Assembly (NCBI GenBank): GCA_963696385.1
Contig: CAVOKF010000006.1
Coordinates: 32,001 to 96,000 of the forward strand
DNA length: 64,000 nucleotides
Origin: an uncultured delta proteobacterium
GTDB taxonomy: Bacteria > Myxococcota_A > Polyangia > Polyangiales > Polyangiaceae
Direction: 5' to 3'
The position numbers were made by a program. This document shows positions 27,001-42,000 of the stretch, in pieces. Positions within the stretch are counted from its first letter, which is position 1. Each line of letters begins with the position of its first letter.

Positions 27001-30000
27001 GCCCTGGTGACGCGACCAGCAGCGCAGCCGACGACGCCCACGGCGGAACCACAGAGGGCGGTGATACGAGCGTGGGCTCGACAGAATCCGACGGCGAATC
27101 GGGGACCGACGGTGCGCCGTACGACGCCTCACCGGCCGACGCGGAAAAGGGAGACGCTCGGGCACCGGCCGACGGCGGAGAAGACGCACCGCCGAACGCC
27201 GTCGTGGACGGCGGAGTGGCGTGCGGTCCCAAGCGGTGCGATCCCGGCCTCGACTGCTGCGATCCAAGCTGCGGCCTCTGCGCATTGAGCACCGTCTGCG
27301 CGGAGATGGGGGTCTGCGCTCCCCCGGCGGACGCGCAGCCGCCGAACACGTGCGGATCGCAGACCTGCTCGCAGCGGCAGGTATGTGTCTATTCGGTTCT
27401 CGGCGGTACCCCGGCCCAGTGCACGCCACTCAACGACGCGGACTCGTGTGCGTCTGGAACCTCGTATACGCCGACGTGTCCGAACCTGAACGACCGTCCG
27501 GGCTGTATCGGGCCTTCGCCATCGCCGCAGCCTCTGGGGTGCATCGACATTCCGGCGTCCTGCGGCACGGTCCTTCAATGCGCGTGTTTTCCACCCGGCG
27601 TGTGCGCCGACGCGGGTGGCACCGCGACATGCGCCATCGTCAACTCCCTATCACTCACGTGCGCCACCGAGTGAACGGAAGGAACCGCGGGGTCGAGCTC
27701 GTGGAGCTGGCGCGGCACCGCTCGCGCGCTGGTTCGGTGGCGCGCATGCCGGTCGTTGGTGGCTGGTCCTCCAAGTCTTGCCGATTCGCAAGGCAAGCTG
27801 ACTGCAAACTTTGGCATCAACTGGGGCCCCGCGCGCCACCGTGCGCTCACGTGCGGCGTGCGCTAGCGCTAGTACCCCGATTCCATGAAACGGAGGGGTG
27901 AGACCACCCGATCCCGTCGGGAATATCGCGGAAAACGACCCTTCCATTCCGCGGAATCGAGGTACTAGCCCCGATCTGACATTCGTAGCGAAAAGGTTGT
28001 GAGACAGGAAATCGCCTGTTTGTTCGTGTTTGTCTCGCGTTGTAAGCACGTCGGTCGACGAAGAGCCCGCGGAGGCGGGCGCGGAAACATATCGCGTCTT
28101 ATATCGCGTCTTAGGAGCGTCCGTTGCCACTGAAAGTACCGTCCAATTGGAGCTGCCGCGCTCGGCGCTATTTGCATCAAGCGACACGGTGGCCGATCCG
28201 CTGGCGCTCGGGAAGTGGCTGAAGATCAAGGCCTAGGTTGATCCCGGGCCAGCCAGGGCTCGGGTGGGCCGCGCCGCGCGCAGGACTGGAGGTCCGCAGG
28301 GTCACCCGTTGCGCCGCCGCTCAAGTGCCGAAATGTCGCGCACGGCACCGCACGAGGCGCTCGTCGTCATTAGCGCGTACGCCTTGAGCGCGGTCGATAC
28401 GTGGCGATCGCGGTTGGGTCGCCACGCGTCCAGACCGCGGGCGTCCATGCGTCCACGTCGAGCCTCAAGGTCGGATGGGCCAAGGAGAAGTTCGATGCGT
28501 CGAGACGGGATGTCGATTCGAATGCGATCGCCATCTTCGATCAAGGCGATCGCCCCGCCTTCCGCGGCTTCGGGCGACACGTGTCCGATGCTGAGACCCG
28601 AGGTCCCGCCGCTGAAGCGGCCGTCCGTGATGAGGGCGCAGACTTGCCCGAGGCCTTTGCCCTTGAGAAATGAGGTGGGATAGAGCATTTCCTGCATGCC
28701 CGGTCCGCCGCGCGGGCCCTCGTAGGCGATGACGACGACGTCGCCGGGGGCGATTCGATCGGCCAGGATGGCTTCGCACGCAGCCTCTTGCGAATGGAAG
28801 ACCCGCGCGCGGCCGTCGAAGCAGAGGCAAGACGGGTCGACGCCCGCGGTCTTTACGATGCATCCATCTTCGGCGATGTTGCCCTGCAGGACGGCAAGGC
28901 CGCCGTCGCGCGCGTAGGCGTGTTCGGAGTCGCGGATGCAGCCCTTTGCGGGGTCGTCGTCGGTCGATTCGAAGTAGGTGTCTTGGGAGAACGCGTCGCG
29001 TGTACGGACCCCGGCGGGCGCCGCGAGCGCCCGTTGGCGCGCGCGAGTCGCGGCCGTGGGCCGCCGAATGTCGTTTGCGTCGATTGCCTCGCCGATCGTG
29101 GTGGCGTGGACGGTGAGCGCGCTGCGGTGGATGAGACTCATGCGATCGAGTTCACCGAGGATGGTGAAGATACCGCCCGCGCGATGCACGTCCTCCACAT
29201 GGTAGTTGGAGGACGGGGCGACCTTGCACAGGTTCGGGACCTTTCGCGAGAGTCGATCGATGTCGGCCATGCCGAAGGCAACGCCCGCCTCATGAGCCAT
29301 GGCGAGCACGTGCAGTACCGTGTTCGTGGATCCGCCCATGGCAATGTCCAGAGCCATCGCGTTCTCGAACGCCTCGAACGTCGCGATGCTGCGAGGAAGC
29401 ACGGAGCGGTCGCCGCCGACGTAGTATCGCTGGGTCATTTCGACGAGCTGGCGCGACGCGTTGTCGAACAGCTCGCGACGCATGATGTGGGTGGCCAGGA
29501 GCGTACCGTTTCCGGGCAGCGCGAGTCCGATGGCCTCGTTCAAGCAGTTCATGCTGTTGGCGGTGAACATGCCCGAGCAGGATCCGCAGGTCGGGCAAGC
29601 CGCGGCTTCGATACGGGCGAGCTCCTCGTTGGCCACGCGCGCGTCACTCGAGGCGATCATCGAGTCGATGAGGTCGAGCTTGCGCGCGATGGGCTGTCCG
29701 TCGCGGCCTCGCGTTCCGACCAGGCGGCCGGCTTCCATGGGCCCCCCGGAAACGAAGATGGTGGGAATGTTCAGGCGCAGGGCCGCCAGGAGCATCCCCG
29801 GCGTAATCTTGTCGCAGTTCGAGATGCAGAAGAGCGCGTCGGCGCAGTGCGCGTTGACCATCGTCTCGACCGAGTCGGCGATGAGCTCGCGGCTCGGCAG
29901 CGAGTAGAGCATCCCGCCGTGCCCCATGGCGATGCCGTCGTCCACGGCAATCGTGTTGAACTCGACGCCCCAGCCTCCCGCCGCATCGATGCTCTTTTTC

Positions 30001-39000: not shown

Positions 39001-42000
39001 TGGCGCGCCCAGTCGTCCCACAGGTCAACCATCTGCTCGGGCGTGTAGCGGCGCCCATCCGACTTGCGCAGCACATAGCCGCCGCCCTCGAAGAATTCGC
39101 TCGCCGCCGGATCCAGAGCGAGCACGACGTCTTGACCCGCCCGAAATCCCGCTTGCTCGATGGCGCGAAGGATCACCTCGATCGCTTCCACGTTGGCGCG
39201 CAGGTTGGGCGCGAAGCCGCCCTCGTCGCCGACGCCGGTGCCATACCCCGCCTTCTTCAAGGTCGCCTTGAGCGCCTGGTACACTTCCGCACCCATCTGC
39301 AAGGCGTGGCGAAAGGTCTGCGCCCCCACCGGAGCGACCATGAATTCCTGGAAGTCGACGTTATTATCGGCGTGAACCCCCCCGTTGAGGACGTTGAACT
39401 GGGGGACCGGCAGCAGGTTCGGCGCGCCGTCGGTGGCAAGCTCGACATAGAGCGGCCGGCCGTGCGCCGCGGCACGGGCTCGGGCCACGGCAAGAGAGGC
39501 GGCGAGGATTGCGTTCGCCCCGAGGCGCGCCTTCTGGGGGGTTCCATCGAGGTCGCAGAGCGTCCGGTCGATGGCCGCTTGATCTTCCGCATCGGCGCCC
39601 ACAAGCGCGCGGGCGATGGCGCCGGTCACGTTCCCCACGGCCTTGAGCACGCCTTTGCCCGAGAACCGCGCCTTGTCGCCATCGCGAAGCTCGACGGCTT
39701 CGCGGCTTCCCGTCGATGCGCCCGAAGGGATCGCTGCGCGTCCAGTCGCGCCTCCTTCGACGACAACATCGGCCTCGACCGTCGGAAGCCCTCGAGAGTC
39801 GAGGATTCCACGAGCCCGAATTTCTTTGATCCGCATCGTCTTGCCTCCTCTTATCGAGTCGCGGCAAGACGTCCAATCTCCCGCGACGCATAGCATGCCC
39901 GCAGGAGTCATTGGCGGTGTTCACGGGCACCGCGGTTACGGCGGACTCCACCGCCAAGGCCCTCGCTACTGCAAACGGGAACGCACCGCAAGAGCCGCGG
40001 AGACGAAGCGACCTCATGGTTCGCGCGCATTGACGCGGCTCCACTCGTGATTGGCGCGGCACGACGCGCGCGTGCCCCGCGATGCTCGGGGCGCTCAGGG
40101 CTGGAGTCGAGCAGGGCAAGGGCCTGCCTGAGGACTTCAAGAGCGTCGGGTCGGGCGCGGTCATCGATAGCGCTCGGCGGCACGGATGACCGAGCCGGTA
40201 CGGAGCCAGTCGACTCGCGGTTGTCCGCCGCGCCACGAGCTCGGGTCCAAGAGTGCATCGGCGAAGTCGACCGCGCGCCCAGGAAGTCCCTCGGTCGCCG
40301 CGACGAGCGCTCGGAATTCTTCGCGGCCGAGAGCAAAGGGTAGCGAACGCGCCGTGAGGAGCGACCCGAGGAGCGCGCGAATCGAGCTTCCGTGCAGGGG
40401 TGTGAGCTCCATCTCGCGGTGGGATAGCGCGAGGCCGCGAACCCGATCGCGGTCCCGCGGCTGATCGACGTCGGCGGCCAATGCGATGCCGAGGCCCATT
40501 CCACGCACAGCTTTGAGAGCCCCTTTGAACGCGGTTCCCGTGCGGCCGAGATCGTCCAAGAGCAGCATTCCTGGGGCGCGCTCGGCGGCGATGCGCAACC
40601 GACCGCGCCACTGACGCTGCGTCGCTGCGGGAGCCACGGAGGGGTAGGCTCGGCCGAGGGCCTGGGTGAAATCGGCCAGCGAAGCGGTGCGGATGGCGAG
40701 CCCGCAGGGTCGCTCGCGCTGGCGCGCGCGGCGCTCGAGGGCGCGCAAGAGGGCGGACTTGCCCACGCCCACCGGACCATAAAGGACGACGACCTCGCCG
40801 TCGTCGAGCCACGCGCCGAGGGTCGCGAGCGATTGCTCGCGGCCAAGGAGAGTTTGGGCGGTCATCGGTCCGCGAGGATCCGCGCGTCGGCTTCGAGCGG
40901 ATCGTCGGAGACAAGGTGGACCCCGTGCTCGCCGAGTCGGCGCGCGGCCGCGGCCGCGCGGGGGTCGCTCGCATCGGTCCGTGCGGCGTGATCGACCAGG
41001 AGCGCGAGTTCGAGGGAACGGCCGAGCATCAGCGAGAATCGTCTCGCACCGGCCTCGAGCACCGCGGGACCCGCGGTATGGCCGCGTTCGAACCACGCGC
41101 GGGCGTGTGCGACGGCGCTCTGGGCCGCTCGCGCCGCTCGTGTGCAGCCGCTCGGGGCCCCATGCGACAGGCACCGGGTGATCTCGCGCTCGACCAGAGA
41201 AAGGCCCCCGAGTTTGGACAGCACGTGAACGACGTCGAGCGAGAGAACGTTGGTCGTGCCCTCCCAAATGGGGAGCACTTGCGCGTCGCGGAGGAGGTGC
41301 GGCACGCCCGTGTCTTCCACATACCCCGCACCGCCGAAGGCCTCGAGGACCTCGCTGGCCACCGCGACGGCTTGCTTCGCCGTGGTCAGCTTGGCGAGCG
41401 CCGTGAGGAGACGCAGGAGACTGCGCTCTTCCTCCTCGAGAAGGTTGGCCTCCTCGCGCCCGAGAAGCTCGACGACCCGGAATGCAAGGAGGAGCGCGCC
41501 GAACGCCTCGGCTTCCAGTCCTGGCAGCGTGTCGAGGTGAAGCGGCTTGTGCAAAAGGGGAGCGCCGAATGCGACGCGCCGATGTGCGTAGCCGCGAGCG
41601 AGATCGAGTCCGCGTCGCATCTCGGCGCAAGCCAAGACGGCATTCCACGTCCGAGTCACGTTGAGCATCGGCGCGATGTGGTTGATGCCACTCGAAAGCC
41701 CGACGACGGGGATGGCCGGCACGCCGTCAAGCGTGAGCTCCGCGGTAGGCAGCATGCGAGTGCCCAGCTTGTCTTTGAGCCGGTTGACGAAGATGTGGCA
41801 AAGGCGGCCCTCGTCGTCGCGGGGCTCGAGGTAAAAGAGCGCAAGACCCTCGCCGCCAGAGGGATTGCCTTGCGGCCTCGCGAGCGTCAGCGCGACCTCG
41901 GAGGTCGCGGCGCTGGTGAACCCTTTGGTCCCAAAGAGGCGCCAGTGCTCGCCGTCTTTGCGGGCGACGGTCTCGGAATTCGACACGTCGGAGCCGCCGA

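Follow-up and report, generated by a model that had tools for sequence, protein, structure and literature searches.

Cytoplasmic fluoride climbs mainly through inward diffusion of HF at low external pH. Enolase and pyrophosphatase (PPase) are the classic fluoride-inhibited Mg enzymes, and the Na+/H+ antiporter is a classic member of the fluoride regulon. Among the genes associated with fluoride riboswitches, a review names enolase, PPase, Na+/H+ antiporters, exporters and formate hydrogenlyase (PMC11139923), and a riboswitch-controlled island, ppaC-uspA-eno-gpmA-crcB, was described earlier (PMC5533749). Here we analyzed a DNA stretch of 64,000 nucleotides (the window) from a soil bacterium, in which the segment at 28.3-40.0 kb is likely a fluoride-response cluster that is specific to the strain and carries four fluoride-riboswitch aptamers (Table 1).

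Four fluoride aptamers and the units behind them

All four riboswitches of the survey's finding were re-found at their positions. Riboswitches 1, 3 and 4 exceed the RF01734 gathering score of 34, whereas riboswitch 2, in divergent orientation beside riboswitch 1, falls below it because its second stem is long and irregular; its core and pseudoknot letters are invariant relative to the other three aptamers. A genome-wide RF01734 search returned only these four matches with E<=1.4e-5, the next best reaching 16.3 bits (150 of 848 first-look candidates scored). The 3' tail of riboswitch 1, CUGAUGACUCCU, is complementary over 12 nt to AGGAGUCAUCAG, which lies in HEAT codons 2-6; the minimum-free-energy fold predicts a hairpin that encloses GGAGG and the TTG start. 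The tail of riboswitch 4 is able to pair with the downstream CGCGGGAG, and the Shine-Dalgarno sequence sits in a second hairpin. No U-rich terminator was found behind any of the four aptamers. Read from the sequence, riboswitch 1 may exert translational control by tail release, which is less clear for riboswitches 3 and 4.

Table 1. Features of the cluster and its flanks, in window positions
Feature	Position	Strand	Evidence
rve-type insertion sequence (IS), left flank; ORF 25097-26746 (-)	24746-27968	.	Pfam rve_3/rve/HTH_32
IlvD, long-type dihydroxy-acid dehydratase (DHAD), last gene behind riboswitch 1	28302-30179	-	ILVD_EDD_N/C; NF009103 equivalog 1052.5 bits (cut-off 710)
PREN, 308 aa, zinc-less alpha/alpha toroid, prenyltransferase/terpene-cyclase repeat superfamily	30248-31174	-	PF00432 38 bits, residues 11-80 only
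HEAT-repeat protein, 429 aa, first gene behind riboswitch 1	31171-32460	-	HEAT_2 90.5 bits, HEAT_PBS 57 bits
Fluoride riboswitch 1	32484-32551	-	RF01734 52.7 bits
Fluoride riboswitch 2	32715-32790	+	RF01734 28.9 bits, E 1.3e-4 (15-kb search)
Na+/H+ exchanger-Usp fusion pseudogene behind riboswitch 2	32903-34017	+	Na_H_Exchanger 23.5 bits; Usp profile positions 60-115
Fluoride riboswitch 3	34064-34134	+	RF01734 42.1 bits
crcB (Fluc fluoride channel)	34192-34575	+	PF02537 89.9 bits; likely start ATG 34192 behind GGAGG
DUF190 (P-II-like CrcB companion)	34592-34993	+	PF02641 121.1 bits
Family-I soluble inorganic pyrophosphatase	34997-35542	+	PF00719 141.5 bits
DLP, IniA/BDLP-type bacterial dynamin-like GTPase, 567 aa from ATG 35523	35523-37226	+	Dynamin_N 86.8 bits
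MFS transporter, second gene behind riboswitch 4	37254-38498	-	MFS_1 133.3 bits
Second enolase, 429 aa from ATG 39836	38547-39836	-	Enolase_N/C; TIGR01060 607.4 bits
Fluoride riboswitch 4	39895-39964	-	RF01734 40.1 bits
P-loop ATPase-like gene, 234 aa, just upstream of riboswitch 4	40161-40865	-	

Three aptamers head intact units, i.e., HEAT/PREN/IlvD, crcB-DUF190-PPase-DLP and enolase-MFS, with putative operon boundaries. Gene spacing is tight: crcB and DUF190 are 16 nt apart and DUF190 and PPase 3 nt, the DLP start overlaps the PPase stop by 20 nt, and HEAT ends 4 nt into PREN; IlvD starts 68 nt after PREN and is presumably co-transcribed. The families given in the survey (IlvD, the prenyltransferase-like PREN, HEAT, CrcB, DUF190, family-I PPase, the Dynamin_N GTPase DLP, MFS and enolase) agree with Pfam and NCBIfam, and second copies of three of them are indeed present elsewhere in the genome, with identities to the island copies of 55% for enolase (contig C3), 72% for CrcB and 74% for DUF190. 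The island PPase, however, is the single PF00719 match in the genome and so does not count as the spare that had been claimed: the other PPase, on contig C8, is a different enzyme, a membrane H+-PPase. The data support a riboswitch-controlled cluster that contributes CrcB, a second enolase and a soluble PPase. Homologues of the MFS transporter occur in 12 related loci, and Pfam MFS_1 genes are also present in other fluoride islands. The P-loop ATPase-like gene is possibly an island member, the border here being uncertain; its product is 36% identical (E 5e-20) to an AAA_16 protein encoded beside DLP in loci L040-L042.

Behind riboswitch 2, what had been described as a small membrane-protein-Usp operon turned out to be the remains of one frameshifted Na+/H+ exchanger-Usp gene. 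The Na_H_Exchanger and Usp matches lie in different ORFs and spread over three frames with at least seven frame changes; about a third of the length is lost, and the last ~80 exchanger residues and the first ~60 Usp profile positions are missing. The intact riboswitch-controlled exchanger of genome G012 matches the pseudogene in three frames (tblastn). An antiporter-Usp unit, of a kind classic for the regulon, has thus decayed here. Together with IS debris on the left flank and the sub-threshold score of riboswitch 2, this pseudogene could mean that the entire cluster is a decaying remnant of IS-mediated shuffling, with dead switches, some dead genes and no present function. We regard this as very unlikely: the nine other genes are all full-length with family scores above the cut-offs, three aptamers at 40-53 bits keep their core and pseudoknot letters, and the platform of riboswitch 1 is intact.

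DLP and PREN behind fluoride aptamers in other lineages

The predicted DLP model (pLDDT 90.3) resembles IniA (6j72, E 7.9e-17) and BDLP (2j68, E 4.3e-16) in Foldseek, and the columns of its G1, G3 and G4 motifs are invariant except for a nearly invariant G4 Asn. Strong homologues (E<=1e-30) were found in five of 32 genomes, own genome included, and in each of the four others a Fluoride match immediately precedes the gene on its own strand (50.4, 40.4, 33.9 and 22.9 bits). In a 301-genome sample of the class, an aptamer lies upstream on the same strand in 5/5 full-length orthologues (E<=1e-40; 48.8, 26.7, 40.4, 38.1 and 37.3 bits), and at none of the paralogue loci (0/12 by Rfam, 0/21 by our own model R2). 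A 401-genome sample of the phylum gave 13 other orthologue loci, one cut by a contig end. In eight of the 12 assessable loci, from seven coded families, an R2 match (42.8-53.2 bits) precedes the gene on its own strand, and four have no aptamer even within about 9-10 kb upstream. These counts rest on R2, a model derived from GC-rich hits that gives low scores to aptamers of lower GC (15.5 bits vs 47.1 with Rfam in L083). The genomes throughout are a sample, not an exhaustive set, and kin among them are not independent. No aptamer was found at the DLP genes of L040-L042. The membership of DLP in the fluoride regulon is strongly supported, as it stands behind the riboswitch in many independent lineages, well beyond the single lineage seen earlier.

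The PREN model (pLDDT 91.2) aligns with the beta subunits of RabGGTase and GGTase-III at TM 0.65-0.70 with 13-15% identity (Foldseek), and the family shares the motif GGFCFYRxxWGVEEPNAPDT. The survey's count of 32 relatives at E<=1e-3 was reproduced, but the family is larger: a profile search recovers 711 representatives at E<=1e-10, 180 of them at E<=1e-30. The 93 related loci represent 60 lineages. An aptamer was present in the locus for 13 of these, 11 at or above the Rfam cut-off (no more than about 10 kb away on the same contig) and two more by R2; for the other 47 it was not found in the available DNA of the locus. PREN recurs inside riboswitch-headed operons of differing gene order in other phyla: riboswitch-DLP-enolase-PREN-x-PGM-like (L107), riboswitch-crcB-DUF190-enolase-PREN (L083), riboswitch-MutS-MutS-MFS-PREN (L108), riboswitch-hydrogenlyase-like complex-DUF190-PREN (L100) and, by R2 only, riboswitch-SulP-PREN-PpsA (L052).

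The main partner of PREN is a second enolase or PEP synthase: in 18 of the 51 lineages that could be assessed, the gene directly before PREN, in the same orientation, encodes an enolase, and PEP synthase adjoins PREN in three (L048, L052 and L103). The PREN-linked enolases of actinobacteria, which keep all catalytic residues, separate as a clade of their own (100/100) from the remaining enolases of these genomes. By record names, the genome-derived loci come from Acidimicrobiales, Acidithiobacillus, Acidihalobacter, Thiomonas and bog or peat MAGs, habitats that fit the HF route. PREN is not fluoride-specific, because many Acidimicrobiia hold enolase-PREN without an aptamer, some of these pairs next to RNase P RNA. 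It is conceivable, though we give it the lesser credence, that PREN is an accessory of a second-enolase or PEP-forming module for acidic habitats and hitch-hikes into the regulon via enolase. The adjoining PEP synthases, the lack of an aptamer at most acidimicrobial enolase-PREN loci, and genome G012, in which only one of two enolase-PREN pairs has an aptamer before it, favor such hitch-hiking. However, aptamer-headed PREN operons without enolase exist (the window, L100 and L108), and 13 of 60 lineages is far above the roughly one Fluoride match per 2-3 Mb in those genomes. Collectively, membership of PREN in the fluoride regulon is supported, more moderately than that of DLP.

IlvD, HEAT and the origin of the cluster

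The survey had viewed IlvD as a new, foreign, fluoride-sensitive spare. The long-type island IlvD is 78-81% identical in amino acids to that of four congeners, which are mutually 79-84% identical; 13 of 18 congeners give long matches, and in three of five congeners checked no DHAD other than the long type was found. The genome's other ilvD encodes a different, short DHAD type, 36% identical. At the IlvD genes of the four congener loci (L139-L142), no Rfam match reached the gathering score and our own model R1 gave no match upstream, only 12-16 bits inside or beyond the gene in L142. IlvD was found in none of the 106 PREN-related loci, and we found no paper linking DHAD with the fluoride riboswitch. 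The reading as a foreign spare is therefore not supported; being of a genus-wide type and riboswitch-linked only here, IlvD is probably a bystander, or else a very recent recruit. For HEAT, about 10 specific relatives are found (P0154-P0163), with no match at E<=1e-15 in 400 other genomes of the phylum (four candidates scored per genome). HEAT was rejected as a conserved PREN partner (0/106 related loci). The links of IlvD and HEAT to a fluoride aptamer are unique to this window.

As reported, the surroundings are rich in mobile elements, comprising DDE and rve transposases, a group II intron, a phage integrase and toxin-antitoxin genes. A 100-nt direct repeat, the two copies of which are 100% identical (24746-24845 and 27869-27968), encloses the left-flank IS; parts of this stretch recur at 79-100% identity elsewhere in the genome, and congeners hold matches as well. 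Horizontal acquisition as one mobile island is plausible: the block is absent from all 30 relatives compared and an IS lies on its left, but the GC content is like the genome's, and neither integrase nor att sites were found at the island borders. A fuller version, in which one acquired island brings spares of three fluoride-sensitive metal enzymes, with IlvD as a new target, and HEAT-PREN-IlvD form a functional unit, could draw on the co-orientation and close spacing of these genes behind riboswitch 1 and on the absence from relatives. Moreover, the closest relative by short IlvD (G334, 95% at the amino acid level) has a long IlvD only 78% identical in nucleotides, leaving room for transfer within the genus. 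We nevertheless consider this version unlikely, given the genus-wide, aptamer-free occurrence of long IlvD, the absence of IlvD and HEAT from related loci and the unremarkable composition.

A putative mechanism and its relation to described regulons

We infer that the cluster is induced by fluoride and infer likewise the protein functions beyond family level. With rising cytoplasmic fluoride, each aptamer would fold around fluoride and Mg2+ and draw its 3' tail into the pseudoknot; the tail could then no longer pair with the downstream complement that buries the ribosome-binding site, so that translation would be on. CrcB would export fluoride alongside its usual companion DUF190, and the soluble PPase and second enolase would raise capacity at two fluoride-inhibited steps. 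Judging by its fold, DLP most likely serves to remodel or repair the cytoplasmic membrane, and the gene neighborhood suggests that PREN is most likely a binding or accessory protein of the enolase/PEP-synthase node, not a prenyltransferase. We found no paper linking the DLP family to fluoride; recurring behind fluoride aptamers elsewhere, DLP and PREN stand beside the enzymes, antiporters and exporters of the described regulons as two protein families not yet tied to fluoride in print.

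Fluoride aptamers and the genes behind them

Four fluoride aptamers lie in the cluster, as the survey's finding had it; the Rfam model RF01734, with a curated cut-off of 34 bits, recovers switches 1, 3 and 4 above and switch 2 below this value (see table). Thirty alignment columns, including the pseudoknot letters GGAGT and GACTCC, are invariant across the four copies, and the core is common to all. Switch 2 falls below the cut-off owing to the length and irregularity of its second stem: as read from the alignment, six pairs are possible with one bulged A and a long loop, and the Rfam alignment pairs 2 bp. 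No other Fluoride match at E<=1.4e-5 was found in the 6.9-Mb genome among the 150 of 848 first-look candidates scored. Each aptamer runs in sense with its downstream gene, and genes of the known regulon, as listed in PMC11139923, follow switches 3, 4 and 2, the last as a pseudogene. The tail of switch 1, CUGAUGACUCCU, is complementary to AGGAGUCAUCAG, which lies in codons 2-6 of the gene for the HEAT-repeat protein (HEAT), and a predicted hairpin encloses GGAGG and the TTG start of that gene; by inference from these pairings, switch 1 would act as a translational ON switch. No U-rich terminator was found 3' of any aptamer, the window scan returned 10 terminator-like sites versus 7.3 expected with none behind an aptamer, and a sigma-70 promoter scan returned 0 sites. 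The sequencing runs containing the stretch are eight DNA runs (soil and peat metagenomes from two studies), with no RNA run among those listed.

These islands repeatedly carry divergent, back-to-back pairs of fluoride aptamers with 50-270 nt between them, as if a single short intergenic region held two promoters as well as two switches. Elsewhere in the genome, a riboswitch-like remnant with one pseudoknot mismatch lies about 230 nt upstream of the other crcB, followed by an upstream ORF of about 60 codons whose stop overlaps the crcB start. It was rejected as a working aptamer: our aptamer model R1 gives 33.7 bits, but R2, the model built from GC-rich hits, gives 17.1 bits, and Rfam yields no match at the gathering score or at E<=10.

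Pfam and NCBIfam bear out the gene families named in the survey: dihydroxy-acid dehydratase (DHAD; IlvD), the 308-aa prenyltransferase-beta-like protein (PREN, with only a partial Prenyltrans match), HEAT, CrcB, DUF190, pyrophosphatase (PPase), the dynamin-like GTPase (DLP), an MFS transporter and enolase. HEAT and PREN overlap by 4 nt, crcB and DUF190 are separated by 16 nt and DUF190 and PPase by 3 nt, and PPase shares 20 nt with DLP when the latter is read from ATG 35523, a start that fits its 567-aa relatives. The island enolase scores 607.4 bits against the TIGR01060 equivalog cut-off of 300, and the positions that we take to be its metal and acid/base residues are among the invariant columns of 22 sequences, including the island copy and PREN-linked paralogues. 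The PPase had been described as a spare copy; it proves to be the sole family-I PPase of the genome, the other PPase being a membrane H+-PPase.

The unit behind switch 2, previously read as a small membrane-protein-Usp operon, is a single dead gene, in which three frames alternate to give fragments of a Na+/H+ exchanger and the end of a Usp domain. The alignment with an intact, riboswitch-controlled exchanger from another genome passes through frames 1, 3 and 2 and breaks off at residue 319 of 398, indicating at least seven frame changes and large deletions; an assembly error is unlikely to be the cause, because all other genes of the window are uninterrupted. Since Na+/H+ antiporters are the commonest riboswitch-associated genes after exporters, according to PMC11139923, switch 2 heads a decayed classic regulon member. 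The MFS family of the window recurs in fluoride islands, often beside a MutS-like pair or an enolase (26-38% identical to the window's by tblastn), and is missing from the regulon list in the accessible text of PMC11139923. Gene maps of the related loci (L numbers) combine a GC3-based caller with tblastn; the caller alone missed or misread some genes, such as PREN in L108.

Positions of aptamers, genes and elements in the window and in related loci
Feature	Sequence	Position	Strand	Remarks
Switch 1, fluoride aptamer	window	32484-32551	-	RF01734 52.7 bits; 5' of HEAT-PREN
Switch 2, fluoride aptamer	window	32715-32790	+	RF01734 28.9 bits, E 1.3e-4 (15-kb search); 5' of Na+/H+ exchanger-Usp pseudogene
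Switch 3, fluoride aptamer	window	34064-34134	+	RF01734 42.1 bits; 5' of crcB
Switch 4, fluoride aptamer	window	39895-39964	-	RF01734 40.1 bits; 5' of enolase
Exchanger-Usp pseudogene	window	32903-34017	+	
Divergent aptamer pair	window	32484-32551/32715-32790	-/+	
Divergent aptamer pair 1	L011	2950-3008/3073-3133	-/+	
Divergent aptamer pair 2	L011	11731-11806/11864-11929	-/+	
Divergent aptamer pair	L017	5024-5099/5157-5223	-/+	
Divergent aptamer pair	L036	9197-9270/9318-9380	-/+	
Divergent aptamer pair	L052	292-366/425-489	-/+	
Divergent aptamer pair	L113	984-1047/1319-1382	-/+	
Riboswitch-like remnant	own genome, contig C3	462335-462392	+	L145 4336-4393
MFS gene	window	37254-38498	-	
MFS gene	L107	3591-4859		
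MFS gene	L108	8026-9264		
MFS gene	L045	6157-7383		
MFS gene	L052	7439-8821		
MFS gene	L110	about 11717-12805		
Aptamer-headed run	L107			DLP-enolase-PREN-x-PGM-like
Aptamer-headed run	L083			crcB-DUF190-enolase-PREN
Aptamer-headed run	L108			MutS-MutS-MFS-PREN
Aptamer-headed run	L100			hydrogenlyase-like complex-DUF190-PREN
Aptamer-headed run	L052			SulP-PREN-PpsA; aptamer by R2 only
RNase P RNA, second enolase, PREN	L082, L085, L087, L097	about 6000-8800		Acidimicrobiia
Membrane protein, about 130 aa	L044	8873-9277	-	
Membrane protein, about 130 aa	L045	2431-2823	-	
ATPase-like gene	window	40161-40865	-	234 aa, P-loop type
100-nt direct repeat	window	24746-24845/27869-27968		perfect
Group II intron, D1-D4	window	7119-7345	+	RF02005 107 bits
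Reverse-transcriptase ORF	window	7680-8480	+	
DruA (Druantia) domain ORF	window	18591-19466	+	111.7 bits
Tandem array	window	44266-45117		46-nt unit
Nearest integrase	window	48278-49456		

The dynamin-like GTPase and its aptamers

DLP matches Dynamin_N of Pfam at 86.8 bits, against a cut-off of 27, and contains the GTPase motifs G1 (GxxxxGKS/T), G3 (DxxG) and G4 (N/TKxD). Across 34 DLP sequences, G46, G51-K52-S53, D141-T142-P143-G144, K200 and D202 are invariant, and N199 is nearly so. In the predicted structure (pLDDT 90.3), the GTPase domain is followed by long helices spanning residues 248-566 (neck/trunk), with a coil or loop at residues 422-459. Foldseek returns IniA, BDLP, Cj-DLP and SynDLP as full-length matches, the best being IniA of Mycobacterium smegmatis (PDB 6j72; E 7.9e-17) and BDLP of Nostoc (2j68; E 4.3e-16), whose order of a GTPase domain and then a long helical neck and trunk recurs in the DLP model. 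However, the sequences are 15-19% identical, the TM scores are only 0.33-0.41, which fits differences at the hinges, and the control by a fluoride riboswitch is DLP's own. The loop at 422-459 is presumably where IniA and BDLP touch lipid; IniA has a role in drug tolerance.

The link between DLP and the aptamer was examined by three tests that do not start from the neighbourhood in the window. Among 31 PREN-holding genomes plus our own, five contain a strong DLP homologue (E<=1e-30), and in the four other than our own a Fluoride match immediately precedes it on the same strand. Of 301 evenly sampled genomes from the class of one genome holding both PREN and DLP, 23 have a DLP match at E<=1e-20 (26 loci); a Fluoride match stands directly upstream of all five full-length orthologues (48.8, 26.7, 40.4, 38.1 and 37.3 bits), whereas the paralogue loci, one of them from a genome flagged as unpublished, have none (0/12 with Rfam, 0/21 with R2). 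A sample of 401 genomes from the window's own phylum yielded 13 other DLP orthologue loci, one of them cut by a contig end; eight of the 12 assessable loci, from seven coded families, have a same-strand upstream R2 match of 43-53 bits, seven within about 200 nt, and four have no aptamer even with about 9-10 kb more upstream sequence. The DLP family is large: of the candidates scored, at least 3410 proteins match at E<=1e-20.

Collectively, aptamers upstream of 5/5 class orthologues and 8/12 phylum loci, as against 0/21 paralogues, sustain the survey's claim for this protein, and DLP is a well-supported regulon member for which the searchable literature gave no precedent. Literature searches, whose scope excluded the gene table and supplement of Baker 2012, found no paper that brings together the fluoride riboswitch and a dynamin-like protein, and the words "dynamin" and "GTPase" are absent from the available text of PMC11139923 and of Weinberg 2010 (PMC2864571). 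Beyond the family level, the function of DLP, like those of the other cluster proteins, we infer. DLP behind fluoride aptamers in several phyla would link fluoride stress with membrane remodelling. To our knowledge, the natural triggers of bacterial dynamins are mostly unknown, and fluoride would be a defined, easily applied inducer for one of them.

Just upstream of switch 4 lies an ATPase-like gene whose start overlaps the acyl-CoA dehydrogenase stop by 4 nt; its product is 36% identical to that of an AAA_16 gene adjoining DLP in three related loci (L040-L042).

The prenyltransferase-like protein and a second enolase

The survey had counted 32 relatives of PREN, a number reproduced by word-index search; a full profile search extends it to 180 representatives at E<=1e-30. 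The 93 PREN-related loci represent 60 lineages at 97% identity, those derived from genomes being assigned by record title to Acidimicrobiales, Mycobacterium, Acidithiobacillus, Acidihalobacter, Thiomonas and bog MAGs. The PREN model (pLDDT 91.2) is an alpha/alpha toroid with PFTB repeats, equal in size to the beta subunit of Rab geranylgeranyltransferase and GGTase-III (PDB 1dce_B, 6j74_B and 6o60_B; TM 0.65-0.70), with which it shares repeats of the type GGF...D..Y/T. Yet identity to these subunits is 13-15%, and the neighbours of PREN are enolase or PEP synthase rather than isoprenoid genes. The zinc site of protein prenyltransferase beta subunits consists of Asp, Cys and His. No His occurs among the 15 invariant or 28 near-invariant columns of 31 PREN sequences, nor of 32, so such a site cannot be conserved; no PPTA-type alpha-subunit gene was found among the neighbours scanned in 17 related loci, and the gene upstream of PREN in the window encodes a HEAT/PBS-lyase-type repeat protein instead of a PPTA alpha subunit. 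A protein prenyltransferase was accordingly rejected. A class II terpene cyclase, whose hallmark is a DxDD-type acid motif, was likewise discarded, as the motif is absent from the window's PREN and the sole invariant Asp of the family is D49 in NAPDT. Any activity of PREN would be that of a toroid that binds a ligand or a protein. A profile search of PDB sequences with PREN gave local repeat matches only, with no residue-level mapping of a site, and the protein Atlas returned generic prenyltransferase clusters only. HEAT, translationally coupled to PREN here, has about ten specific relatives and adjoins no other PREN gene among 106 related loci.

A fluoride aptamer occurs in the locus of 13 of the 60 PREN lineages (11 by Rfam at or above the cut-off, two by R2), and in five loci it heads a co-oriented run that includes PREN, the gene order being different in each. 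Aptamers of five genomes (G004, G006, G014, G016 and G028) were rejected as PREN-linked and left out of these counts, since they lie on other contigs. Enolase stands directly upstream of PREN and co-oriented in 18/51 assessable lineages, and PEP synthase adjoins PREN in three; the association of PREN with enolase is stronger than that with the aptamer. Acidimicrobiaceae genomes with a PREN-linked enolase have another enolase elsewhere, presumably the housekeeping copy, and their PREN-linked enolases form a separate clade (100/100) that keeps all catalytic residues. The survey's proposal of PREN as a regulon member is thus moderately supported, by the 13 lineages and the five aptamer-headed runs, but its primary link is with a second enolase. 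Literature searches found no relevant paper joining the fluoride riboswitch with a prenyltransferase or with PEP synthase, and prenyltransferase-like proteins are absent from the available text of PMC11139923 and PMC2864571; the gene table or supplement of Baker 2012 may bear on the point.

In four loci of Acidimicrobiia, a second enolase and PREN follow RNase P RNA and no fluoride aptamer is present; the chromosomal setting of the pair is conserved there. A complex prediction for the adjacent enolase and PREN of L107, with an alignment for each, scored 0.00, which counts neither for nor against binding. A 1077-codon ORF in L052, considered as a PREN-PEP synthase fusion, was dismissed, as the separate frame of PREN closes at 4740 and PpsA has its own Met start.

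The known defences against fluoride are export (Fluc, CLC-F), pH homeostasis and additional copies of the enzymes that it inhibits. In a bolder scheme, which we consider improbable, a second enolase of stress type would have PREN as its dedicated partner. The eno2-PREN pair, sometimes with PEP synthase and a PGM-like phosphatase, would keep phosphoenolpyruvate forming while the ordinary enolase is blocked by acid stress or by fluoride (as a Mg-F-phosphate complex), and PREN would act directly on either the enzyme or the inhibitory complex; together with the fluoride-induced DLP, the pair would form a second response layer (metabolic bypass plus membrane repair) beyond export. The conserved enolase-PREN pair, present in bacteria of acid soil and mine water, suggests that a central glycolytic enzyme has an accessory yet to be recognised. 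Both DLP and PREN are relevant to engineering fluoride-tolerant strains for organofluorine degradation, a stated aim in PMC11139923.

IlvD, mobile surroundings and related fluoride clusters

The genome encodes two true DHADs that are 36% identical, the long type of the island (NF009103, PRK12448 type, 1052.5 bits against 710; TIGR00110, 783.4 against 618) and a short type on contig C7. Thirteen of 18 same-genus genomes, one of them flagged as unpublished, contain long stretches that match the island ilvD at 74-79% nucleotide identity, in unrelated contexts; the proteins of four of these congeners are 78-81% identical to that of the island and 79-84% to one another. The long type is the sole DHAD found in three of five congeners checked. 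The four congener loci have no aptamer upstream of IlvD: Rfam gives no match at the gathering score, and R1 gives only matches of 12-16 bits, inside or beyond the gene in one locus. IlvD and HEAT are both missing from all 106 PREN-related loci. These comparisons indicate that the island IlvD is the genus's own type and that its position behind switch 1 is unique. Since the long IlvD of the nearest relative by short IlvD (95%) shares only 78% nucleotide identity with the island's, ilvD may have been acquired by exchange within the genus. The survey had presented IlvD as a new regulon member; we take it instead as a bystander or a very recent recruit, and a literature search found no paper linking dihydroxy-acid dehydratase with a fluoride riboswitch. 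Neither IlvD nor the membrane protein-Usp unit should be counted as a new member any longer, and the corrections on IlvD and the dead antiporter keep two false members off the regulon list.

The window contains three transposase genes, a group II intron with a reverse transcriptase, a phage-type integrase and toxin-antitoxin genes. The cluster as a block was found in 0/30 relatives (18 of the genus); the matches listed cover single items only, namely IS copies, ilvD, crcB-DUF190, enolase, short stretches of PPase and MFS, and the right-hand acyl-CoA dehydrogenase, with no cover of PREN, HEAT or DLP among them. On the left, 334 nt separate ilvD from the end of an IS that has perfect 100-nt repeats; on the right, there is no matching element. 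GC content is 0.656-0.693 in the island versus 0.650-0.665 in the contigs, and the composition profile has no island signal. The cluster, once proposed as a mobile, acquired island, is strain-specific and has an IS on its left with no counterpart on the right, and its composition resembles that of the genome; mobile elements probably helped to assemble it.

The repeats, with palindromic ends (CTAGTACC...GGTACTAG), bracket a rve-type IS, and parts of the stretch between them have 98-100% identical copies on contig C7. Thirteen overlapping 300-nt frames of the tandem array are in register, 60-100% identical to the reference frame. One ORF of the window matches a DruA (Druantia) domain, and others match BrnA antitoxin, UPF0175/DUF3368 and a zeta-toxin fragment.

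Related islands share parts of this content. An Acidimicrobiaceae MAG (G012, locus L107, C1:1.980-1.992 Mb), beside a phage-type integrase, has three aptamers heading DLP-enolase-PREN-x-PGM-like, MutS-MutS-MFS-NUDIX and a Na+/H+ exchanger. Its unusual member set is that of the window; in contrast, its gene order differs, its exchanger is intact, it belongs to another phylum, and crcB, PPase, HEAT and IlvD are absent from the stretch covered. L107 and locus L108 (G005:C12:76-87.3 kb), the latter with six Fluoride matches within 11.3 kb, are denser fluoride islands than that of the window; their gene content includes MutS-like pairs, NUDIX, a PGM-like phosphatase, Usp and ABC-F. In L044 and L045, the last gene of a riboswitch-MutS-MutS operon adjoining PREN encodes a membrane protein with a CrcB-like Pfam match of 16.9 bits, below the cut-off, which may be a divergent fluoride channel.

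The reviewed fluoride regulon, in the available text of PMC11139923 and Weinberg 2010 (PMC2864571), has RF01734 aptamers with exporters, Na+/H+ antiporters, enolase and PPase downstream, as here, and formate-hydrogenlyase-like complexes and MutS-like pairs, as in related loci; it differs in having neither a dynamin-like GTPase nor a prenyltransferase-like protein (0 occurrences each in that text). The cluster is a real fluoride cluster with several switches and belongs to a known kind; its nearest published case is GI3 of Enterobacter cloacae FRM (PMC5533749), a genomic island with one operon, ppaC-uspA-eno-gpmA-crcB-orf5249, and a fluoride riboswitch. Both combine a fluoride riboswitch with CrcB, extra fluoride-inhibited enzymes (enolase and pyrophosphatase) and Usp, whereas the window has four aptamers and four units, a family I PPase in place of ppaC, no gpmA, a Usp that is fused to an antiporter and dead, and, in addition, DLP, PREN, HEAT, MFS and IlvD.
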